Shown here piece by piece: positions 3,901 through 19,093 of a stretch of DNA of 53,461 bases. A program made the position numbers and the translations under genes. Numbering within the stretch: position 1 is the first letter of the stretch; the number at the start of each line of letters is the position of its first letter. The stretch lies in the UHGV virus genome UHGV-0032033, one strand, 5' to 3'. The stretch comes from a virus. Under the pieces are notes generated by a model. It made no database searches and was not told the origin of the DNA. It saw nothing but the letters and a program-made list of their open reading frames with translations.

Positions 3901-5398
3901 CTCCAGCATCAAAGGGGAAATCGCCCGCGTTGACAAAGCAATCGCAACCGAAACGCAGGCAAGAAGCGACGCAATAACAGAGGTTAAAGCTGATTTAACC
4001 ACGCTTGAAAATAGCACGAACGCCAGTGTTAGACGCCTTGATCAAGCTATCGCTGACGAATCAAGCGCGCGCGCCCAGGCAATATCAGGCATCAGTGCGG
4101 AGCTTGGTTCTGTTGAAAGTGATGTTGATAAAAACAGCGACAAGATAGAACAGGCGAAAGCAAGCCTGCAAAACGCATCGATTGCACTTATCAACAACTC
4201 AATAGCGCAAAGCAAGATGGGCACTGTTATTGAGGCGAAATATAGGAAAAGCCAGATAAAAACAAAAGCGGAAATAGCAAGGATCGACACAGCAATAGCA
4301 GACGAAACCCAGGCACGCGCAGAGGCTATAGCTTCTCTTGAAGCCAATATTAATGAAAACATTTCAGCAAAAATAACAGATATATCAACGGCGCTCGCAA
4401 CTCACGAGGCATCAAGTGCTGAAAAATTTGTTCAAATATCGGCATCTTTCGACGATGTAAACTCAAGCATCACGGAATGGTCACAGGCCATGACAACGGC
4501 AGACGAGGCATTATCAACCAAAATTGATCAGCTGAAAGTGACCGTTAACGGAAACACAACAGCGATCGAGACAACATCGAAAGCGTTAACTGACTTTAAA
4601 GGTAACGTTGATGCGTCATATTCAATCAAGCTCGCCACCGATAACAACGGCATGACATACGCTACAGGTATGTCGCTTGGATTGACTGGAGACGGGACTA
4701 ACTTTCAATCGCAGTGTATTTTTCTGGTTGATCGCTTCGTTTTAATGACTGCGGCAAACGGTACATATCAATCGCCTTTCTATGTCACCAATGGCGCAAT
4801 GTATGTGCGCGAAGCGTTTATTAAAAACGGTTCAATCGACAATGCAAAAATAGGCAATGTCATAACATCCTACAACTGGAACGGTAGCGATCAAGGGTGG
4901 GCAATAGTTAAAGATGGCTGGGCTACATTTAACAACGTTACAGTTCGAGGCACGGTATACGCCACTAACGGCGAGTTTTCAGGGGCCGTTAGAGCCAAAT
5001 CATTTGAGGGTGGCATTAGTTCAGGTACGCAGGGAACAAGGCAATCCAGCGGGACGATCACAATTAACGTAACACCTAATACATCTAATAGTATGCTATT
5101 GCTTTTCGTTTCTGTGTACACGGCTGGTGTGCGCACAGCAAGCGGCGAACATACAGTAACACTACATGCTGGTGGTCGTAGTTTTAACGTTCCTCCGTCT
5201 TATGTTGCAAGTGGTGGCGTACCGTCAACTTACAGATTTGATTCAACTATAATCATCCCGGTAATTGGGACAAATAAGAGGGCTGTTTCGATATATTTGA
5301 GTCATGTTGGACATGTTAGCTTAATTAACACAGACATAAGACTTCTTGGCGCTGTATTACTAAACTCTTCATTTTTAACAGGTACTTTTGATTTTTAA
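992..5398 (+). CDS. tail tip host-specificity protein J-like (central tail fibre), 1468 aa
   Basis: RBS aacaggag; N-terminal ~800 aa carry lambda J hallmarks (ISEGPIYGPV, YHLRG, AFGCTSRGQAHRAGKWLI); then coiled-coil with internal duplication and C-terminal receptor-binding-like region. Confidence 0.9.
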   Translation: MSSGGGKAKTPTLINDNLYHKQFYRVLDIISEGPIYGPVNTKAPLNSVMLNDTPVTDANGNTSIPGISVAWRNGTIDQSPINGFNAIESTVIVNAQVKHDTPIIRTVSDPNVNRVRLNIGVDSLVQSDEQSNQHNTSVMMMIDVKPSSSSTWTLVKDVTIGPGKISGEYLEAHIINAPDEKPFDIRVRRVTADSTSDLLQNDTRWSSYSEIIDDNLSYPHTAVAGAVIDHDQYADTPTRTYHLRGLIVDIPDNYDPEKRTYSGLWLGGFKQAYTNNPAWIFRYLVKNERFGLARHAGYIDVDDGALYTLSRYCDQLVDDGYGGLEPRMTLNAYITEQMSARDLLDNIAGMFRGIALWDGQRLTVMIDAPQDPIATITNANVVDGAFTRSSISRAECYNAVIVSWTDPENGWEQSKEYVADDELIARDGYNETTLEAFGCTSRGQAHRAGKWLIETAKREPSKFTFKMARDAIHFTPGDIIEILDNNRAGARLGGRIVANNGKVITVDKVDSEYIAAGDTISLLDGDGKFKKHQITGVNWNKITLAAAPAWIRNGTVFAVSTESAKPVLCRIISVAETENNSVYTIEAAQHDPNKQAVVDEGAIFEINNDTLNHFRVPNIENLKVVNIGSETVQCRATWETQTTTHRMTFEIRIYNADGAVVKSYETTKYSYDFYGIDAGAYSLGVRGRNDTGMKGAESIVDLVIGAPASPIGVNWVPGVFQATVYPISKTTLTTDTAYEFYYAGENQITDPAKITTSAQFTGRGYQWTFGGMNTGHTYYVYVRTRNAFGVSDFVEASGKPTENFDEISDYVTKDVMNSEQFKGMVSDIKDLGDRTDIIESATADLKTATDGLKADTDTLKKDTEDLYKKVEENADEIGKHAVRIDSLEVSDENVNNELAQTKASLQNASLALINNSLAQTNTRVTLTAQYKKGRNETKAQIDRIDNVIADEKKATAESLETITAEMNAMDSSIKGEIARVDKAIATETQARSDAITEVKADLTTLENSTNASVRRLDQAIADESSARAQAISGISAELGSVESDVDKNSDKIEQAKASLQNASIALINNSIAQSKMGTVIEAKYRKSQIKTKAEIARIDTAIADETQARAEAIASLEANINENISAKITDISTALATHEASSAEKFVQISASFDDVNSSITEWSQAMTTADEALSTKIDQLKVTVNGNTTAIETTSKALTDFKGNVDASYSIKLATDNNGMTYATGMSLGLTGDGTNFQSQCIFLVDRFVLMTAANGTYQSPFYVTNGAMYVREAFIKNGSIDNAKIGNVITSYNWNGSDQGWAIVKDGWATFNNVTVRGTVYATNGEFSGAVRAKSFEGGISSGTQGTRQSSGTITINVTPNTSNSMLLLFVSVYTAGVRTASGEHTVTLHAGGRSFNVPPSYVASGGVPSTYRFDSTIIIPVIGTNKRAVSIYLSHVGHVSLINTDIRLLGAVLLNSSFLTGTFDF

Positions 5399-10745: not shown

Positions 10746-10952
10746 TTACACAATACGCATTATGTTTCTTGATTCACCGCGCAGCGCCTGCAACGCTTCG
10801 CGAACTGGAACAAAAGCTCTGTTAAATTTTACGTGTCTGTACTTGCGCATCAGTGGAGGTGTATAAACCATCGCGCCGCAAGAATTGCATGGGAAACGGA
10901 AATGTGATTCATCAATGAATGTTTCAACTGAATAAAATATTACCCGTCTCAT
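10746..10952 (-). CDS. hypothetical protein (68 aa)
   Basis: Small ORF in leftward early operon, overlapping start of downstream gene. Confidence 0.4.
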   Translation of the reverse strand: MRRVIFYSVETFIDESHFRFPCNSCGAMVYTPPLMRKYRHVKFNRAFVPVREALQALRGESRNIMRIV

Positions 10953-11542
10953 AATTCTAACCCCGTTTCGCTGTTAAGTTTTTCGATTTCAAATACTGGT
11001 TTATCCGGCAGCAGGCCGTTATTTTTCCGGTATTCGTTCAGGCGGCTATCAAAATCAAATGCAAGATCATTAGCGTGACCGAATCGCCCGGGCTTAAACA
11101 GTGAGTAAAAATTAAGGCCGTGTTTATTGGTGTCTATGCAAAGCGTTTCATCCAGTACCATTAAACGCAGCGTGCGCGACAGGTAATTCCACGGAATACC
11201 AGTTTCCGCGCTAATGTCACGCATACGCTTTTTAACGCTGTAGTCACTAAATAACGCCGCCACACGATCGCGCCGTTGCGCATACAAATATTTAATTCGA
11301 TACCCCAACAAGCGGCGGCGCGGTCCAAAATATGTATACACACGCTCAACAATACCAGTATCGATCAGGTGTTTAATTGTCTCAGACAAACATCCTGCTT
11401 CGTCATATTCCGCTGATAATCCTGTTTTCTGGCGTAGCTGGTGCATCGTTGCGATGCCGTCAATTTCAAGGATATTGATAACCTTTGTTTCAAGTTCAAT
11501 GCTCATTGTTTTTCGCCTCGTTTTAAGCACGAAAACAGCCAC
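10949..11542 (-). CDS. hypothetical protein, winged-helix-like N-terminus (start may be internal Met MSIELET)
   Basis: 197-aa ORF directly downstream of DnaB gene; N-terminal segment VINILEIDGIATMHQLRQKTGLS resembles wHTH. Confidence 0.45.
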   Translation of the reverse strand: MAVFVLKTRRKTMSIELETKVINILEIDGIATMHQLRQKTGLSAEYDEAGCLSETIKHLIDTGIVERVYTYFGPRRRLLGYRIKYLYAQRRDRVAALFSDYSVKKRMRDISAETGIPWNYLSRTLRLMVLDETLCIDTNKHGLNFYSLFKPGRFGHANDLAFDFDSRLNEYRKNNGLLPDKPVFEIEKLNSETGLEL

Positions 11543-11585: not shown

Positions 11586-13007
11586 TTAAAAAGATGCGTT
11601 GGTATGGTTATTTCGTTGGGAGAATCGGCTTGTCGCCGGACGTTGTTGCATTGACTGGATGCAAGCGGACGCTGCGCGGGCCTGGTCACAAGGGAGGATA
11701 TTGCCGTTGTCGTCAAATCGCTGGTAAACAGTCCCCGTTTTCCCGTGACGGTTTTTTGAAACGATGATCTCCATGTATTCGCGGGCAACTGATTGTTCGT
11801 TGTAGTAGCCGTCACGGTAAACCATGATGATCCGGTCCGCGTCTTGTTCAAGATTACCGGAATCGCGCAGATCAGAATTGTTCGGGCGCTTGTTCGGTCG
11901 TTCTTCAACGCGGCGGGATAATTGCGCCAGTGCCGCCACTGGCACGCGCAACTCTTTCGCCATCATTTTCAATGACCACGACAATTGCCCTACAGCGAGA
12001 TCATGACGTTCGGCCTTAGCCAGTTTCATTAACCCGATGTAGTCAATCATAACCATCCCCAGGTTAGGATGGTCCTGTTTCATCCGTTCGACGGTGGCGC
12101 GTATTTCCTCGACCGTTAACTGCGATGCGTCAACAATCCACACATCGAGATCGGCAAGGGCGCTCATTCCCTGGGCGACGTGCGCCCAACCTTCGTCATC
12201 CAGTTTTACCGGATTACGAAGGCAATCCGTTGATAAGTTCCCAGCGCCAGCTATAGCGCGTTCAGTCATCTGATCGAGCGACATTTCAAGCGTAAACAGC
12301 AAAACGCCGACCCGTTGACCTTCGCTGCCAGGGTATGGACGTTCAGCCGCCGCGCGGGCAATTGCCAACGCCAACGCAGATTTACCAGACCCTGGGCGTC
12401 CGGCGATAAGCACCAGATCAGTAGCGTTAATGCCTCCTAACATTTCGTCGAGTGGGTCAATCCCTGTTTTGATGTTGTCAGAGTTAACGCCACACTCCAT
12501 GCGCTTACTTAGCACTTCCGTGTATTCCTGTACCGCGTCGCGCAACAGCACCGGAATAATCTTGTCTTTCGTTACTTTTAATTTTGAATACCGGGAATCA
12601 AAATATTTCATCGTCTCCCTGACAACTTCAAGCGTCCCGGTTTCCAGCTTGTAGCGGATATCTTCCATCAGTTCCAACATTTGCCGCCGCTGATATTCCT
12701 CCTGCAATAGCGCGGCGTACCCCTTCAGGTTGGCAGCCGAAGGACACGATCGCGCCGTTTGCATTAGCGGGATGAAGTTTTCGTTACCGATTTCATCACC
12801 GACCATCAGCGCGTCAATAAGGTTTCTGTTTCTAGCTTGCGCCCGGATGATCTCAAACGCTCGTTTATATAGTGGAATGGTGAAGACTTCAGGATCGAGC
12901 GTAGCAAGAACATCTTGCGCGTTAGGAGTAAGCCCGCCTAACAGGAGACCACCTATCACAGCCGCTTCCCGTTCCTGGCGTAATGAATTTACTTGCTCAG
13001 TCACCAT
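11586..13007 (-). CDS. dnaB: replicative DNA helicase, DnaB family
   Basis: 473 aa; Walker A GRPGSGKSALALAIA, N-terminal DnaB-like domain, C-terminal RecA-like core motifs. Confidence 0.85.
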   Translation of the reverse strand: MVTEQVNSLRQEREAAVIGGLLLGGLTPNAQDVLATLDPEVFTIPLYKRAFEIIRAQARNRNLIDALMVGDEIGNENFIPLMQTARSCPSAANLKGYAALLQEEYQRRQMLELMEDIRYKLETGTLEVVRETMKYFDSRYSKLKVTKDKIIPVLLRDAVQEYTEVLSKRMECGVNSDNIKTGIDPLDEMLGGINATDLVLIAGRPGSGKSALALAIARAAAERPYPGSEGQRVGVLLFTLEMSLDQMTERAIAGAGNLSTDCLRNPVKLDDEGWAHVAQGMSALADLDVWIVDASQLTVEEIRATVERMKQDHPNLGMVMIDYIGLMKLAKAERHDLAVGQLSWSLKMMAKELRVPVAALAQLSRRVEERPNKRPNNSDLRDSGNLEQDADRIIMVYRDGYYNEQSVAREYMEIIVSKNRHGKTGTVYQRFDDNGNILPCDQARAASACIQSMQQRPATSRFSQRNNHTNASF

Positions 13008-13025
13008 TATGGTATAGCCTCCGGT

Positions 13026-14144
13026 TTACAAAATGGAATATTCAGGGTAATAAACAAAGCGCCCGATCTCCCCATAATCAGGACTGTAAATTATTACCGC
13101 AGCCAGACGCCGCGACCGCCAGCCGCCATTCGTTGAATAAGCGTCTTTGCCCGCTAACGTGCCGTGATGTTCTACGATCCCTAACGATGTTTCTACAACA
13201 GACTGGTGATGAAGATGGCCCGTATGAGCGTAAACCGCCGCCGACTTGCCGAAATCCTCCCGCCAGTCAGAGATGCAGGCAGCTAACAAATTTTCGGGTT
13301 TTTTGATAGTGTGACCGTGATGATAGGCAAGGAATGTTTTGCCGTACTGTGTGTGGTGGACGATAGCAGGGGACACGTCAACCGTCACGCGCGGTTCATC
13401 TTCGTAAAAAGCAGCCAGCGCCGCACGTAGCCAAATCATCCCTGATTGATCATGATTTCCGCTAAGCACCTGGATCTCGACATCCTTATGATTTAGCAAC
13501 ATCTTCCCGACAGCACGCCGGACCGACCGGATCGCCACGTAAACAAGTTTTGCGTAGCGTGAATCACAATCCAAAACGTGATTACTTGATGGCGTCACTG
13601 GTAACAGTCCGTCAGTGTGGAGCACATCCCCGCCTAACAGCAAAACAGCTTTTTCAGACATCGGTGCAGCGCCTACCGCGTAGTCGAAGAAATCATTTAG
13701 CACGCGCTCAGCGATCCCAGTGTCGTAGCTCTCGCCGCATTCTGCCTTGTGAGCAAGCGCCCCGATATGCAGATCAAATACCGGATAAAGGGCCAGGCTT
13801 TTTTGGAAATCAATTTCCGGCACTGGCACGGCCTCCGCGCGGGGTATTTCTTCCGTGAATGCATCACAAGCCGATTGCATTAGCCTTTCCATTTCATCGC
13901 GATCACGGGCTGTTTTAATCCAGCGCATAATCACATTGCCATCCTTATCGACGAGCAATGACTCACCATTGACGCCAAAACCCGGCGCGCGACGCGTGGA
14001 TATTAAACCGCGTTTCGCCAACCGTGCGCCCAGGCGTTCGACGTTGCGTTTTGCCATGCCATATTTTTCTGCTATTTGCTTGTAAGTTTTCCCCTTGTTG
14101 TACTCAGCGATCAGTTCCTCATCGCTGATCTTTCTTTGTGACAT
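13026..14144 (-). CDS. HTH domain fused to calcineurin-like metallophosphoesterase
   Basis: N-terminal HTH (TYKQIAEKYGMAKRNVERLGARLAKRGLI); C-terminal phosphoesterase motifs DLHIG, GGDVLHTD, LSGNHD, HTGHLHH; occupies helicase-loader position between initiator and DnaB. Confidence 0.6.
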   Translation of the reverse strand: MSQRKISDEELIAEYNKGKTYKQIAEKYGMAKRNVERLGARLAKRGLISTRRAPGFGVNGESLLVDKDGNVIMRWIKTARDRDEMERLMQSACDAFTEEIPRAEAVPVPEIDFQKSLALYPVFDLHIGALAHKAECGESYDTGIAERVLNDFFDYAVGAAPMSEKAVLLLGGDVLHTDGLLPVTPSSNHVLDCDSRYAKLVYVAIRSVRRAVGKMLLNHKDVEIQVLSGNHDQSGMIWLRAALAAFYEDEPRVTVDVSPAIVHHTQYGKTFLAYHHGHTIKKPENLLAACISDWREDFGKSAAVYAHTGHLHHQSVVETSLGIVEHHGTLAGKDAYSTNGGWRSRRLAAVIIYSPDYGEIGRFVYYPEYSIL

Positions 14145-14537
14145 AACGTTACTTCCTCATGTTTACAGAATGTATATTTATTTTCCGTAAAACGCGCTAC
14201 AACGCAAAATTCCACCGCGTAACCCACTTGTAAGGGTGCAGTGTCTTTTTTGCGCCAGAGGCGCTATCAGGTGGCTAATTTTTGATTTACAGACTGGTAG
14301 GTAGGTTATGGATTAACGAGAAGGTACAAGCCGCCGAACAAAGCGACGTTAACAGCGATTGCCGCAGCGATGGCAAGCCAGGGCGAAAACGTGTTTACCG
14401 TCCATTTTAAAATCCTCTCTGTAACGCTCTATAACGAGCTAATCGCAAAAAGGTAAGAAGTGTAGCACCATATGCGATTTAGCTCGCTGGTGAGGTTGTT
14501 TTGTGGGTAATTTTGGATTTTTGCGGATCGTGGTTGG

Positions 14538-15566
14538 TCAAAGAACGCCAGCGCGTGTATCACGTAGCGTTTTTGGTTTAAGCAGGAAATCAAGTGTCGC
14601 AGTAAAGCCATTGCCGAAGTAAAAATCTGAAGCCGTGTTTTTGAACGTTTCGAAGTAGGCGACAAAGCCGTTAATGCTTTTGTCTTTCAGGTAGTCAGTG
14701 AACGCATAGATCTTGCGTTCAAGATCCCGATCCAGTTCGGCAGGTGGTAACAGGCCGTCGAATGTCTGGTTAAATGCTGATACCACGACAGCAGAGTTAA
14801 CCGTAGCTGTAACTCTTCGCCATTGTTCAGCCTTTGCCAGATATTCATCAAAGCGGTTTACCCTTGCGATCTTTATCGGTTCAGGTTTAAACGACCACGT
14901 TTCCGCTATCCAGTCGATAACCATGATCAGATCTTCTTCAGTGTATGCACTGCGTGTTTTTGTCTCCTTCAGCAGCTTGATAAAGTATTTTTTCTCCTTA
15001 TGTTTGCTATTAAACTTGTTGTTATAGTGATCGAGTACGCGCGACGCTGCCAAATCAGCCGCCTGATCTTCTTCGCTGATAGGCCCGTCTTTTTCCAATA
15101 CACGGAGTGTATTGTTTTTAATGTTCTCTTTACTGGTTATATATGACTGATTAGGGTGTCTCTCTGACACCACCCCCGGTGTCACAGTGACACTACCCTG
15201 GTGTCTCTCTGACACTACCCCCGGTGTCACAGTGACACTACCCTGGTGTCTCTCTGACACTACCCCCGGTGTCACAGTGACACTACCCTGCAATGATGGC
15301 AAGACGATGACATAGAAATTACTTGTTTGCTCTTTTCCTCCTATTAGATAACGAGGTTGTTTAATTAATAACCCTTTCTCACAAAGAGCATCAATAGCCC
15401 GCATAGCTGTACTTTTACCTATTTCGCATTGCTTCGCTATGTGCTGGTAAGAAGGGTAACATTCGCCGTTATCGTTAGCGTTATCAGCCAACTTTAACAG
15501 CACCAGTTTGTGCATTGGGTTTCCGACCTCAGTATGGAATACCTCGACCATTAGCCGCATACTCAT
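14538..15566 (-). CDS. replication initiation protein (lambda O-like architecture) containing the iteron origin
   Basis: N-terminal HTH domain (KLVLLKLADNANDNGECYPSYQHIAKQCEIGKSTAMRAIDALCEKGLLIK); central linker encoded by 3 x 45-bp iterons (GSVTVTPGVVSERHQ x3). Confidence 0.65.
   Translation of the reverse strand: MSMRLMVEVFHTEVGNPMHKLVLLKLADNANDNGECYPSYQHIAKQCEIGKSTAMRAIDALCEKGLLIKQPRYLIGGKEQTSNFYVIVLPSLQGSVTVTPGVVSERHQGSVTVTPGVVSERHQGSVTVTPGVVSERHPNQSYITSKENIKNNTLRVLEKDGPISEEDQAADLAASRVLDHYNNKFNSKHKEKKYFIKLLKETKTRSAYTEEDLIMVIDWIAETWSFKPEPIKIARVNRFDEYLAKAEQWRRVTATVNSAVVVSAFNQTFDGLLPPAELDRDLERKIYAFTDYLKDKSINGFVAYFETFKNTASDFYFGNGFTATLDFLLKPKTLRDTRAGVL
15155..15289. repeat. origin iterons: three tandem 45-bp repeats, each with two GGTGTC-N4/5-GACAC palindromes
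   Basis: ggtgtctctctgacac(t/c)acccccggtgtcacagtgacactaccct repeated 3x within initiator ORF, adjacent AT-rich stretch at ~15121-15150. Confidence 0.8.
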
Positions 15567-15587: not shown

Positions 15588-15833
15588 CTAGAACATCAAC
15601 TGATAAACACAGAAGAAACCAGGTAGCTTGCTGATAAGACCATTTCTTTCAAGTTGATGCAGCGCAGAAACAGCATCGTGTAACGTAATTTCACACATTA
15701 CAGAGATCTCTTCCGGTGTGACTTCGCTTTTGCCGTTACATCCAGCCTTTGTTGCCAGCGCAATTAAGATGAGTTTTTGCGCCGGATCATTGTTATTCAG
15801 GCGAATATCAAAAGCCTTGCGCACGTAATACAT
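15588..15833 (-). CDS. small HTH protein, first gene of leftward early operon (Cro/cII position); paralogous to initiator N-domain
   Basis: RBS aggagaaaagaat-ATG; 81 aa from internal Met of track ORF; KLILIALATKAGCNGKSEVTPEEISVMCEITLHDAVSALHQLERNGLISK mirrors initiator N-terminus. Confidence 0.45.
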   Translation of the reverse strand: MYYVRKAFDIRLNNNDPAQKLILIALATKAGCNGKSEVTPEEISVMCEITLHDAVSALHQLERNGLISKLPGFFCVYQLMF

Positions 15834-15911
15834 ATTCTTTTCTCCTATGGTTAGAATGAACGCGCGGGCGGGCATCCCATTAGCATTAGATAGCAGTGAC
15901 TGACCGCTCAA

Positions 15912-16138: not shown

Positions 16139-16786
16139 ATGAAAACAAAATGGTATGACTTAGCAAAGCAGCTCATGCGGGCGCAGGGCATGAGTCAGGA
16201 TTCACTCGCAGATCTCATGGGGATAACTAAAGGCGGCCTGTCACACTGGCTGAATGGTCGCCGCGAGCCTAATCTTGAAGATATTGCGCGGATTATGCGG
16301 GCGCTTGGTCGTCGGCAGTTTACTGTTACACATGACGGCATGGTCATTGATGATTCTGTTTCTAATACACTTCAGGCCGCGCCGCCGCGTGATTTAGGTA
16401 GTTACCCGGTTATTGACTGGAAGGACACAGTAAACAATATGGATGACACAAGGCGATCAGCATTACCACACGTTACGACTAGCGTTATTTGTTCAGATGA
16501 TAGTTACTGGCTGGTTGCCAAAGGTGAATCAATGAACGCGCCGCAGGGGTTGAGCATCCCTGCTGGGACGATGATACTTGTAGACCCGCACGCGCCAGCT
16601 ATTGACGGCAAACTGGTTATAGCCCAGCTTGAGGAAGGGCAGATACCGACGTTTAAACAGTTGATTATTGATGGAGGTCAAAGGCTTTTACGTTCGCTCA
16701 ATCCGCTGTATCCGCCAATCCCTATGAATCCAGAATCAAAAATTATAGGCGTGGTGGTTGATGCGAAGATCGTAAACCTGCCATAA
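16139..16786 (+). CDS. cI: cI-like repressor (XRE HTH + S24/LexA-type autopeptidase)
   Basis: N-terminal HTH (SQDSLADLMGITKGGLSHWLNGRREP), C-terminal S24 motifs (VAKGESMNAP, IPTFKQLIIDGG); divergent from early operon. Confidence 0.85.
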   Translation: MKTKWYDLAKQLMRAQGMSQDSLADLMGITKGGLSHWLNGRREPNLEDIARIMRALGRRQFTVTHDGMVIDDSVSNTLQAAPPRDLGSYPVIDWKDTVNNMDDTRRSALPHVTTSVICSDDSYWLVAKGESMNAPQGLSIPAGTMILVDPHAPAIDGKLVIAQLEEGQIPTFKQLIIDGGQRLLRSLNPLYPPIPMNPESKIIGVVVDAKIVNLP

Positions 16787-16789
16787 ACA

Positions 16790-16818
16790 TTAGCCGCCGG
16801 ATGGCGGCTTTTCTTTGC
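16790..16818 (+). terminator. rho-independent terminator after cI
   Basis: hairpin agccgcc-ggat-ggcggct followed by TTTCTTTG. Confidence 0.7.
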
Positions 16819-16909
16819 CCGGAAAACACCAAAACGTAAACAGAAAACGTTATTTATTGTTTAAATATCAATAGCATATAAAATATTTTAAAAAGGTATA
16901 CAAAATGGA

Positions 16910-16938
16910 TTGACTCGATGTTTTACGGGGCGTATATT
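16910..16938 (+). promoter_or_regulatory. near-consensus sigma70 promoter for rightward early operon (pL-equivalent)
   Basis: TTGACT - 17 nt - TATATT; preceded by motif AGGTATACAAAATGG; followed by ~340-nt leader before first ORF. Confidence 0.6.
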
Positions 16939-17285
16939 GCGAGTCAAAGGAAGGGCGCAGGTAACAAAAGCAACTTCCTGGCACTTTAAAAATCAGGCTT
17001 AACACCTTGTCAACCGTGGAGTAACTCCCCGATGAGGGACTGAAAGCGGCACTGATAACAAGGCGCATGGGGTGTTTAAAGCGTTACATCCCCCACGAAA
17101 CCGCACGCAAGGCGACGAGTCAGCTTGCTTGGAGTGAGCAAGGTCACGCCGGGAACGGCGATGATTGCGGGATTAGTTGAAAGATGTTAGGCCGCTCATT
17201 AACAATCTGGTCAGCCGCTGGAAGTGCGGCAATTAACGAAGATGATTTTTATTAAGTTTCATCAAGGATATACGGAGATCAGATT

Positions 17286-17576
17286 ATGAGCGTTACAATT
17301 ATGTATGGCAAATGTGACAGTAAACTGAATGCCAGGGAACGCAGAAGGATAAAAAGAGAAAACGAAAGAAAATCATCACCTGCAATCAATAAAACAGACA
17401 ATGTGGATAAAGCTATTCGATTTGCAAACGAGGAAAGATGCAAACCAAATAGCATTAAAGAACGTCGCAAAGGATCAGTAAAATGGTATACGGAAAATGA
17501 AAGCGGCAACTACTACCACGCAACGCAACCACGCCATTTAGGGGAAAAACCCCTGGATAAAGTCCGCTACCATTAA
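17286..17576 (+). CDS. hypothetical basic protein (96 aa)
   Basis: RBS ggag; Arg/Lys-rich (ARERRRIKRENERK); first ORF of rightward early operon. Confidence 0.45.
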   Translation: MSVTIMYGKCDSKLNARERRRIKRENERKSSPAINKTDNVDKAIRFANEERCKPNSIKERRKGSVKWYTENESGNYYHATQPRHLGEKPLDKVRYH

Positions 17577-17606
17577 TACAAAATGTAAACATCCGGAGGT
17601 GACATT

Positions 17607-17726
17607 ATGGTTATTCAGGCGCTTCAATTCAAACTGGCGGTAGCGGAAATGCTTCATGATGCCGAAATGTGGAGCGCCGCGAATAAAGCCTTATACGTAG
17701 TGTTAACAGCACGGGAGATTAAATAG
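17607..17726 (+). CDS. hypothetical small protein (39 aa)
   Basis: ATG-initiated mini-ORF whose stop overlaps erf GTG start; MVIQALQFKLAVAEMLHDAEMW... Confidence 0.3.
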   Translation: MVIQALQFKLAVAEMLHDAEMWSAANKALYVVLTAREIK

Positions 17727-18367
17727 TGAAAACAGAGTTACATAAAAAGCTATGGACGATTCAGCAAACGCTGAACGCGCCGAAAAATCAGCGTAATAAT
17801 TTTGGTGGATATAACTACAGGTCGGCGGAGGATATTTTAGAGGCGGTTAAACCACTGCTTCAAAATATCACGCTGACTGTTAGTGATGAAATTGTCCTGA
17901 TCGGCAATCGCTATTATGTGAAAGCTACGGCGACGCTAAGCGATGGTGAAGACGTAATAGCGGTAACTGCTTATGCCAGGGAGGAAGAAAGCAAGAAGGG
18001 TATGGACGCCAGCCAGCTAACAGGAGCAACATCAAGTTACGCGCGTAAATATGCTTTGAACGGTTTATTCTGTATAGATGATGCTCGCGATCCTGATACT
18101 GATGCTTACGCGAAGCAGACAGGCCAGCAGCCGCGACAACAGAAAAACCCACCAAAACAACAACCGCAGCAGAAGAAAGCGCCGCCAAATCCTGATGAAG
18201 TATTAGCACGTTTCTGTGATGCAGCAGCGAAAGCGCAGGACGCTAACAAGCTGCGTGAAATATTTGGCAAATGCTGGAAATTACTACCGGAAGGATCGGA
18301 ACATCGAATCAAGGCAAAAGATGTTTATGACATCCGGGTAGCAGAACTTAACGGGGAGATGGGTTAA
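17726..18367 (+). CDS. erf: Erf-family single-strand annealing protein
   Basis: GTG start with RBS gggag; N-terminal NNFGGYNYRSAEDILEAVKPLL and SSYARKYALNGLF motifs typical of ERF; Gln/Pro-rich C-terminal tail. Confidence 0.7.
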   Translation: MKTELHKKLWTIQQTLNAPKNQRNNFGGYNYRSAEDILEAVKPLLQNITLTVSDEIVLIGNRYYVKATATLSDGEDVIAVTAYAREEESKKGMDASQLTGATSSYARKYALNGLFCIDDARDPDTDAYAKQTGQQPRQQKNPPKQQPQQKKAPPNPDEVLARFCDAAAKAQDANKLREIFGKCWKLLPEGSEHRIKAKDVYDIRVAELNGEMG

Positions 18368-18831
18368 TGAGTTTAAATTCAATCACGCTGGGCGGGAATA
18401 TCGGTAATGATATGGAGGTTCGCTACACACAAAACGGGAAAGCGATTGGTAGTTTTCCGTTAGCTGTAACGAATGGCTACGGCGATAATAAGCGGACAAT
18501 GTGGATCACTTGCATGGTATTCGGTGAGCGCGCGGAAAAATTAGCGCCGCATATCCGCAAGGGTGGAAAAATAGTGGTAAGCGGTCGCCTGGATGTTCGG
18601 CAATATGACCGGAACGACGGCACGAAGGGGACGGCGGTAGAAGTGGCGGTTAACGAATTTGAATTCCTTAGCAGGAATGATCAGCAGCCGCAGCAGCAAC
18701 AGCAACAACCACAGCAACAGCAGAATCATAGCGGTGGATATAAAGAGCCGCCAATGGATTTTGATGACGACATCCCATTCGCTCCTGTGGGTTTACAATA
18801 TGGCAAAAGCAGAATCTACGCACTATCTTGA
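18367..18831 (+). CDS. ssb: single-stranded DNA-binding protein
   Basis: OB-fold N-terminus (LGGNIGNDMEVRYTQNGKAIGSFPLAV...WITCMVFGERAE), Gln/Pro-rich linker, acidic tip DFDDDIPF. Confidence 0.85.
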   Translation: MSLNSITLGGNIGNDMEVRYTQNGKAIGSFPLAVTNGYGDNKRTMWITCMVFGERAEKLAPHIRKGGKIVVSGRLDVRQYDRNDGTKGTAVEVAVNEFEFLSRNDQQPQQQQQQPQQQQNHSGGYKEPPMDFDDDIPFAPVGLQYGKSRIYALS

Positions 18832-19093
18832 TGCGCCGCAGATTCCGCGAACAAAAGAGCAAGTTCTAAAAGAAGCCCGTGATCAAATCGATCGCGGGCT
18901 TTTTTTATGCGGCACGGCAGCGGATCGGATGGCAAAAAGATTTAGTGACCTGTACGCAAAGCAAATATGGTTCGACAACTGGCAGGCAAGTTTTTACCCA
19001 CTGCAAAGAAAACCGGATATGCATTGGCCTGAATATGTCGATCCACGTATGCGCAAATATCGCGGGCGTATGGGCCAGGTTATTAACGATTAA
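18800..19093 (+). CDS. hypothetical protein (97 aa)
   Basis: Internal ATG of track ORF 18659..19093 preceded by gtttacaatatgg; overlaps ssb 3' end. Confidence 0.45.
   Translation: MAKAESTHYLDAPQIPRTKEQVLKEARDQIDRGLFLCGTAADRMAKRFSDLYAKQIWFDNWQASFYPLQRKPDMHWPEYVDPRMRKYRGRMGQVIND

Follow-up and report, generated by a model that had tools for sequence, protein, structure and literature searches.

We analyzed a 53,461 nt stretch of viral DNA (UHGV virus genome UHGV-0032033; hereafter the window) with regard to a minus-strand gene whose product combines an N-terminal helix-turn-helix (HTH) with a C-terminal metallophosphoesterase (MPE) domain; "MPE" is used here for the product of this gene (13026..14144). 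The gene is located between the genes for an iteron-bearing replication initiator and a DnaB-family helicase, and the original prediction offered two readings of this position, i.e., that the protein takes part in helicase recruitment, or that loading of the phage DnaB proceeds without a dedicated loader, the protein being an unrelated nuclease or phosphatase. The second of these is what the evidence supports. MPE is very likely not a helicase loader, and we consider it probable that it represents an accessory, HTH-tethered, nuclease-like enzyme encoded beside a P22-type two-gene replication module. The protein appears to be a routine member of its family, and the apparent lack of a loader is explained by the P22-type initiator/helicase pair.

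The open reading frame (ORF) encoding MPE starts with ATG, comprises 372 aa and is preceded by a Shine-Dalgarno sequence (GAGGAAG) located 8 nt 5' of the start; its stop codon is separated from the start of dnaB by 18 nt. All motifs on which the description as an HTH-phosphoesterase had been based were located at exact positions, i.e., DLHIG at aa 124-128, GGDVLHTD at aa 171-178, GNHD at aa 229-232 and HTGHLHH at aa 307-313, and the description stands; in addition, motif IV, which had not been listed, was found at aa 275-278 (HHGH). MPE contains all five signatures of the calcineurin-like superfamily (DxH, GDxxD/H, GNH[D/E], H and GHxH, which hold the binuclear metal ligands), represented by D124-x-H126, G172-D173, G229-N230-H231-D232, H276 and G309-H310-x-H312. 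In an alignment of 78 sequences with 30-78% identity, on which all conservation values given here are based, the metal ligands D124, H126, D173, N230, H231, H276 and H312 were invariant, as were G128, G172, T184 and G309; H176, D178, D192, D194, R196, H310 and others were kept in at least 90% of the sequences. As the catalytic residues are invariant or nearly so, this alignment indicates that the binuclear metal site is under strict selection and that the family to which MPE belongs (PHROG 704, see below) is a family of enzymes.

A structural model of MPE, built with AlphaFold2 (AF2) and the 78-sequence alignment, had a mean predicted local distance difference test (pLDDT) score of 93.3 and showed the beta-alpha-beta-alpha-beta sandwich of the MPE superfamily. 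As the metal ligands are near-invariant and the mean pLDDT is 93, MPE is predicted to be catalytically competent. The MPE core spans aa 117-366 of 372 and nothing follows it in the model, i.e., no C-terminal capping domain of the Mre11 type was found. The catalytic domain includes a family-specific loop (VTPxSxHxLDxDxR, aa 183-196). The three HTH helices (aa 8-16, 21-28 and 32-44; pLDDT 83-95) lie in a segment with an isoelectric point (pI) of 10.3 and are followed by a low-confidence hinge, two strands (aa 56-65 and 71-80) and a helix (aa 82-97); G69 and W75, both in the hairpin region, are kept in at least 90% of the 78 sequences.

Pfam Metallophos did not detect the MPE sequence even at E 0.1, and NCBIfam gave no match; among the 78 family members, PF00149 (Metallophos) was detected in 18 and PF12850 (Metallophos_2) in 14 (E < 0.01, best 1.9e-5). 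The assignment of MPE to the superfamily, on which Pfam is silent, was thus based on the motifs, the PHROG match, the fold and the family members. Similarly, Pfam HTH matches of MPE itself were weak and sub-threshold (HTH_28, Rrf2 and Sigma70_r4_2), while members scanned singly gave clear matches (e.g., Sigma70_r4_2, 1.5e-9; GerE, 2.4e-8) that represented different HTH types (HTH_1, HTH_8, Sigma70_r4_2, HTH_28, GerE and others). The family profile reached HTH structures of the GerE/LuxR type, weakly, and a structure search with the single sequence gave only sub-threshold matches to the HTH of IscR. Conservation across the family is lowest in the N-terminal region. As judged from these matches, the fusion of an HTH with an MPE domain is the family-wide architecture.

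MPE matched phrog_704 ('DNA repair exonuclease') with residues 4-368 aligned to positions 2-387 of the 390-position profile (E 8.2e-139, 464 bits), and it is 94.9% identical to the 'DNA repair exonuclease' of phage MagusPhagus (CDS0008), an annotated GenBank phage gene; its family is a catalogued one. Its orthologues (e.g., mEp021_11, MagusPhagus CDS0008, Bas01_0050 and those of T1-like phages, Dhillonvirus and Jerseyvirus) share 45-95% identity with MPE and the same full-length architecture and motifs, and some are labelled 'putative phosphoesterase'; only the genomic position varies, as the gene is located between initiator and dnaB in the window and in the mEp group, while outside this group it adjoins genes for lysis, packaging or DNA metabolism, or Q. 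A tblastn search detected homologues in 2050 of 50,697 phage records (about 4%), with a coverage of 80% or more of the protein in 1960 of them. As judged from organism names, Escherichia (560), Klebsiella (468), Salmonella (373), Vibrio (254) and Campylobacter (60) are the main hosts, and most of the phages are T1-like Drexlerviridae, Dhillonvirus, Jerseyvirus and Webervirus. When 1.84 billion cluster representatives (clusters at 50% identity) were searched exhaustively with HMMER, 4363 clusters matched at E < 1e-3, and 945 of these also at E < 1e-30. Judging from the phage records and the loci in Table 1, MPE homologues occur mostly in phages that lack the DnaB found here, and overwhelmingly with other replication systems and in other genomic positions.

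We also observed irregular copies of the gene, i.e., fragments in Salmonella phage 36 (112 aa) and Jk06 (JK_64P, 258 aa), two pieces in Roseobacter phage RDJL Phi 1, and two separate matches in one record of Shigella phage 2019SD1. The fragmented copies could represent genes split by inserted elements, or decayed genes.

We did not find a canonical helicase loader in the window. Nineteen further early ORFs were scanned against PHROG, and no loader was detected; these ORFs matched DNA methyltransferases, NinG, RusA, Q, an N-like antiterminator and Abc2, as well as a small DNA-binding protein (phrog_4745), a weak match labelled 'phosphofructokinase' and unknowns. No loader is annotated in the 95%-identical phage MagusPhagus, and a Walker-A scan of all window ORFs of at least 80 aa gave DnaB as the only match in the replication region. 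The earlier statement that no P-loop loader is evident nearby was thus borne out. MPE itself showed no Pfam, PHROG or NCBIfam match to loaders (DnaC/IstB AAA+ or lambda P), and its fold is that of an MPE; with dedicated loaders (lambda P, DnaC/IstB-type AAA+, SPP1 G39P, DnaD/DnaB_2) it shares its position but no sequence, motif or fold. A relaxed Walker-A pattern matched AEYNKGKT (aa 13-20) in MPE, but this string is part of the HTH and is not conserved, with ELANGMT in its place in Bas01_0050, and it was rejected as a chance occurrence.

The genes on either side of MPE are consistent with a replication module of the P22 type. The window DnaB is 56% identical to P22 gp12 over 456 aa; it is 93-97% identical to the DnaB of seven sequenced mEp-group members, and its next-best relatives are P22 gp12 and the helicases of P22-like phages. 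The C-terminus of the initiator (about 95 aa) is 34% identical to residues 175-271 of P22 protein 18 (E 2e-14), and all initiators of the lineage retain this gp18-like domain, with matches to gp18 at E 1e-7 to 1e-16, despite differing N-termini. The window thus has a gp12-like helicase, an initiator with a gp18-like C-terminus, iterons inside the initiator gene and no separate loader, all of which resemble P22, where genes 18 and 12 overlap and there is no loader; NinB, Erf and Abc2 of the window are P22-like as well. On the other hand, the N-terminus of the window initiator is of an unrelated HTH_36 type, and 1.5 kb, consisting of a 393-bp spacer and the MPE gene, separate initiator and dnaB. 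The predicted placement of MPE between the iteron-bearing initiator and DnaB was correct; MPE does not directly adjoin the initiator, as the spacer intervenes.

The iterons consist of three tandem 45-bp copies (15155-15290), which are read in frame as a triple peptide repeat (GSVTVTPGVVSERHQ) within the initiator. The mEp021 initiator has two copies of a different repeat, and the MagusPhagus initiator has an unrelated N-terminal domain without such a repeat, with its last 78 aa being 99% identical to those of the window initiator. These sequences indicate that origin specificity is swapped in a modular fashion onto a constant C-terminal domain.

In lambda, the C-terminal domain of O recruits P-DnaB. 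For P22, gp12 is described as a DnaB-type helicase (Wickner 1984), and the replication genes of P22 and L as exchangeable only as a pair (Hilliker 1981), both as referred to in 10.1101/2020.10.05.325894. Based on the analogy with the O C-terminus and P, together with the pair specificity of P22 genes 18 and 12, the initiator most likely uses its gp18-type C-terminal domain to recruit the phage's DnaB directly, so that no loader would be needed.

The window phage is a temperate coliphage of the mEp021 ('mEpimmI') group (PMC11893012; this genome paper does not discuss the MPE gene), and the genomes of its relatives allowed us to assess whether MPE and DnaB vary together. In mEp021, the initiator is followed by a 495-aa zinc-ribbon protein (mEp021_12), MPE, an HNH endonuclease and DnaB, in this order. 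Four E. coli prophages (loci L007-L010) have a Rha-like gene between initiator and MPE, and in L008-L010 an HNH gene lies between MPE and dnaB. These gene orders indicate that the interval between initiator and dnaB is a variable slot for accessory genes. Moreover, compared to the window, the DnaB of L008 is 96.6% identical and the HTH part of its MPE 96%, while the catalytic part of its MPE is only 47% identical at the protein level. In the nucleotide sequence of the L008 MPE gene, the match to mEp phages (83-87% identity) is confined to the first 311 nt. As the catalytic part diverged while DnaB stayed nearly identical, a specific loader-helicase pairing is unlikely. The L008 gene (6001-7122) is itself a mosaic, with a conserved HTH third and two divergent catalytic thirds next to a dnaB of 97% identity, which suggests that the two parts were joined by recombination near codon 104, i.e., where the domains meet.

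The GC contents of the MPE gene (51.0%) and dnaB (51.8%; 53-56% at third codon positions for the two genes) differ from those of the window (46.1%) and of the initiator, ninB and marR-like genes (44-45%), i.e., 11586-14144 is a compositionally distinct two-gene block. We read the linkage of MPE and dnaB as shared ancestry of this mosaic block and not as functional coupling.

Phage Bas1 provides a case in which an MPE orthologue occurs without this helicase. Its orthologue (Bas01_0050) is 54% identical to MPE over the full length (E 4e-148), and no match to the window DnaB was found in the nearly complete Bas1 genome. Spontaneous Bas1 mutants that escape the defence system DRT7 carry missense or frameshift mutations in Bas01_0050, which the authors term a putative nucleic-acid-targeting phosphoesterase and which is toxic in E. 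coli when expressed alone; lambda escapes from DRT7 via gam mutations (DRT7/UG10 preprint, bioRxiv 10.64898/2026.02.16.706125). As the frameshift escapers are viable, Bas01_0050 is dispensable for plaque formation and is a determinant of DRT7 sensitivity. Conversely, neither tblastn nor the family hidden Markov model found an MPE homologue in ST104, a complete P22-like genome with a 56%-identical DnaB; the association of MPE with this helicase is thus not obligate in either direction.

A role of MPE in helicase recruitment, in which it would bridge the initiator-ori complex and the phage DnaB in the manner of lambda P or DnaC, would be consistent with the location of the gene between initiator and DnaB only 18 nt from dnaB, with the lack of a canonical loader in the window, with the adjacency of MPE and dnaB in every mEp-group genome or prophage examined and with the GC content that the two genes share (51-52%, compared to 46% for the genome). 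However, this role is contradicted by the distribution of the family, which is found mostly in DnaB-less phages and in other positions, by the viable frameshift mutants of the Bas1 orthologue, by the precedent of P22 gp12 and its kin, i.e., the nearest relatives of the helicase, which function in genomes without MPE, and by the lack of co-variation in L008 (47-61% identity for MPE, 97% for DnaB). In addition, the slot is shared with other genes, as an HNH gene can be inserted between MPE and dnaB and a Rha-like or zinc-ribbon gene between initiator and MPE; the initiator already has a gp18-type C-terminal domain; and an adaptor role would leave the strict conservation of the metal site unexplained. 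Overall, we rejected MPE as a helicase loader and regard the bridging role as the least probable of all alternatives considered here. Two observations had been named as speaking against such a role, i.e., a canonical loader elsewhere in the genome and dispensability of the gene; no such loader was found, and dispensability holds by proxy only, in a T1-like phage and not in the window phage.

To place MPE within its superfamily, we compared its model to known structures. Structure comparison gave a value of 15.9 for the PolD DP1 exonuclease, 15.0 each for S. aureus SbcD and T. maritima Mre11, 14.3 for MJ0936, 13.8 for LpxH, 13.0-13.5 for further Mre11/SbcD structures, 12-13 for other generic phosphodiesterases and about 9 for PPP protein phosphatases, and a Foldseek search agreed with this ranking; a BFVD fold search yielded uncharacterised phage homologues only. 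The phosphoesterases in the PDB nearest to the family profile were, weakly, Mre11/SbcD (E 0.09), followed by a Pseudomonas putida nuclease MPE (E 1.1), and the profile alignment pairs tDlHlG...lGDflH of the family with SDWHLG...TGDLLH of Mre11 (DxHxG and GD(L/F)LH). MPE also matched phrog_284, an uncharacterised 'exonuclease', at 2.7e-14. Of the comparison with Mre11/SbcD and PPP phosphatases that had been proposed, the fold part thus favours Mre11/SbcD (15.0 versus about 9), while the sequence match to Mre11/SbcD is non-significant. Based on the structure ranking and the weak profile match, MPE looks most similar to the nucleic-acid-acting branch of the superfamily, by a modest margin.

The proximity, although weak, to Mre11/SbcD profiles, the basic HTH and neighbourhoods rich in DNA-metabolism genes (helicase, VRR-NUC, Dam, Pnk and deoxynucleoside monophosphate (dNMP) kinase) together point to a nuclease-like enzyme, and nucleic acid is the substrate that we would, on balance, expect; tethering to DNA by the HTH is inferred. 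We propose that the initiator would bind the iterons via its swappable N-terminal domain and recruit the gp12-type DnaB via its conserved gp18-like C-terminal domain, with the MPE gene riding the early operon in an accessory slot between these two replication genes. As an early-operon product, MPE would be an accessory phage enzyme, i.e., a binuclear metallophosphoesterase tethered to DNA by its N-terminal HTH, which would likely act as a stand-alone nuclease or phosphodiesterase, dependent on Mn2+ or another metal, on DNA ends or on host or phage DNA, in the manner of Mre11/SbcD or PolD DP1. Its accessory role may be in end processing, recombination-dependent replication or attack on host DNA; it would be toxic alone and may be sensed by DRT7 directly or through its products.

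Several points weigh against the picture of an accessory nuclease. The family profile found no significant sequence match to Mre11/SbcD in the PDB (best E 0.09), and the PHROG 704 family is biochemically uncharacterised; literature searches on the phrog_704 family, as well as on T1 'gene 2.5' and host DNA degradation, found nothing on it, and the calcineurin-like effectors treated in the Metis and PUA-Cal-HAD papers are host proteins and not members of this family. The mechanism of Mre11 is not simply transferable to MPE, as MPE has neither a capping domain nor a Rad50/SbcC partner. Compared to Mre11/SbcD proteins (T. maritima, P. furiosus, E. coli SbcD, T4 gp47 and T5 D13), MPE shows about 15% identity, lacks the Rad50-binding helices and has an N-terminal HTH instead; compared to PolD DP1, the archaeal 3'-5' proofreading exonuclease, and eukaryotic B-subunits (10-14% identity), it lacks the OB-fold domain and the DP2 catalytic partner. 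No Rad50/SbcC-like or DP2-like gene was found in the window by the ORF list, PHROG scans and Walker-A scan, no Rad50/SbcC-type gene is annotated in MagusPhagus or Bas01, and no polymerase gene is annotated in the window or MagusPhagus. With regard to replication, the contact between the initiator C-terminus and DnaB is one that we infer, dispensability is known from a T1-like lytic phage while the window phage is temperate, and, in all seven sequenced mEp-group phages and in the three prophage loci examined, the MPE gene is followed by dnaB either directly or after an HNH gene. This adjacency leaves room for a lineage-specific, replication-linked role.

It is tempting to hypothesize that, in T1-like and mEp021-group phages, the HTH-MPE family serves the function that Gam has in lambda, i.e., as a DNA-end enzyme that blocks or forestalls the processing of phage DNA ends by host RecBCD/SbcCD or makes a particular end product; defences such as DRT7/UG10 would then sense this perturbation. 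This possibility is compatible with the mapping of DRT7 escapers to lambda gam and Bas01_0050, with the toxicity of the latter and with a fold closest to Mre11/SbcD and DP1. However, it is weakened by the presence of Abc2, an anti-RecBCD protein, in the window phage (18800-19093), and we regard it as unlikely. In a weaker variant, the enzyme would have been co-opted, in the mEp group alone, to process ori or fork DNA for the neighbouring DnaB.

The lambda nin region encodes a phosphatase of the MPE superfamily. MPE could similarly have a substrate other than nucleic acid, e.g., as a second-messenger or dinucleotide phosphodiesterase with a counter-defence function or as a NinI-like protein phosphatase, with the HTH serving localisation or autoregulation. 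The nin-like position of one homologue before Q (metagenomic locus L013) and the link of the family to a defence phenotype (DRT7 escape) would fit this explanation. However, the DNA-binding domain fused to the enzyme throughout the family argues for a DNA-associated substrate, motif II is the Mre11-like GDxLH instead of the GDxVDRG of PPP phosphatases (to which the fold is not close either), and expression of the Bas1 orthologue alone is toxic. Moreover, loss of this orthologue leads to escape from DRT7, as expected for a trigger and not for an inhibitor, and PADLOC and anti-defence families gave no significant match to MPE. A substrate other than nucleic acid therefore seems rather improbable, slightly more so than a Gam-like function.

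Lower still is the probability that MPE is a transcription regulator, with the HTH bound to phage promoters (e.g., of lysis or late genes) and the MPE domain serving for sensing or regulation: the gene directly precedes Q or genes for lysis, packaging or late functions in many lytic phages, some records are annotated as transcriptional regulator or winged HTH (wHTH) protein, and the HTH resembles sigma-70 region 4 and LuxR types, but the complete and invariant catalytic site implies turnover and not mere ligand sensing, the poorly conserved N-terminus with its variable HTH type is unlike a regulator with fixed operators, the window phage already has N- and Q-type antiterminators with MPE in the early operon, and Bas1 remains able to form plaques when its orthologue is frameshifted.

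While MPE of the window may be an ordinary member, its family is notable in that it is found in about 4% of phage genomes and in thousands of clusters, has a conserved active site and is linked to DRT7. If it were shown what the enzyme cuts and for what reason DRT7 reacts to it, thousands of phage genes could be annotated, and the triggering of DRT7 would become clearer. The coordinates of the features discussed here, and the genomic positions of homologues, are given in Table 1.

Table 1. Features of the window around the MPE gene and positions of MPE homologues elsewhere (window coordinates unless another locus is named).
Feature	Coordinates	Strand	Basis
HTH-metallophosphoesterase (MPE) gene	13026..14144	-	PHROG 704 member; orthologue of mEp021_11, Bas01_0050
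N-terminal HTH, aa 1-55, basic, presumed DNA-binding	13980..14144	-	AF2 helices, pI, weak Pfam matches
Conserved beta-hairpin, helix and linker, aa 56-116	13797..13979	-	AF2; G69, W75 conservation
Calcineurin-like binuclear MPE catalytic domain, aa 117-372, motifs I-V	13026..13796	-	Motifs, fold
O-like replication initiator with internal iterons	14538..15566	-	HTH_36 4.5e-15; PHROG 'replication initiation O-like'
Initiator C-terminal domain, aa 250-342, P22 gp18-like; putative helicase recruiter	14538..14819	-	Sequence homology
Spacer, 393 bp, initiator to MPE; only tiny ORFs	14145..14537	-	ORF list
P22 gp12-type DnaB-family helicase, co-transcribed directly downstream	11586..13007	-	DnaB_C 1e-75; DnaB N-terminal domain 1.1e-11
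T1-like phages (herni, phi2457T, Bas1): MPE after SNF2-type helicase/VRR-NUC/Dam block, just before holin and endolysin			
Dhillonvirus slur05: MPE between endolysin and terminase			
Jerseyvirus vB_SenS_ER1: MPE flanked by unannotated convergently transcribed genes			
Yersinia phage vB_YenM_574: MPE between peptidoglycan hydrolase and Pnk, dNMP kinase, portal			
Vibrio phage 91E33-1: MPE between lysis and head genes			
Ruegeria phage vB_RpoS-V11: MPE adjoins methylase and HD hydrolase			
Metagenomic locus L011: MPE beside PolA/primase-helicase module			
Metagenomic locus L013: MPE immediately before antiterminator Q			
HNH/AP2 gene, L015 (mEp021)	4463-4966		
HNH/AP2 gene, L008	7118-7645		
HNH/AP2 gene, L016 (Bas01_0051)	39208-39693		
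HNH/AP2 gene, L019 (Vibrio phage 91E33-1)	6181-6690		

A homing endonuclease gene of the HNH/AP2 type was found directly 3' of the MPE gene in four separate lineages (Table 1) and not in the window. We considered whether these HNH genes represent a dedicated lineage or partner of MPE and rejected this possibility, as they are no closer to one another than to other Bas1 homing endonucleases; the latter, as used in this comparison, adjoin primase and terminase. The MPE gene looks like one more conserved gene beside which homing elements settle.

Other parts of the window include two genes that adjoin the replication module on the minus strand. Just upstream of the initiator, a 107-aa ORF (15588-15911) matched phrog_4617 (1.1e-8), the N-terminal winged-helix part of phage initiators, and its MagusPhagus counterpart is annotated 'replication initiation protein'; its product may represent another protein that binds the origin or has a regulatory function, or a regulator in the position of cII. 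Directly downstream of dnaB, a 197-aa protein (10949-11542) matched a MarR-like winged helix (phrog_1687, 9e-9) and, faintly, a Ren-like family (phrog_142, 2e-4); its position is conserved in the lineage. In the region 16139-19093, the plus strand encodes an S24-type repressor, an N-like antiterminator (17286-17576), Erf, SSB and Abc2 (phrog_656, 7e-31); next come methylases, NinG, RusA and Q, and then the genes for lysis and structural proteins. The replication operon is oriented in the opposite direction and ends at NinB and the integrase, a gene order unlike that of lambda. Apparently, the window represents a complete phage genome that is circularly permuted and in the non-integrated configuration, as the tail fibre gene adjoins int.

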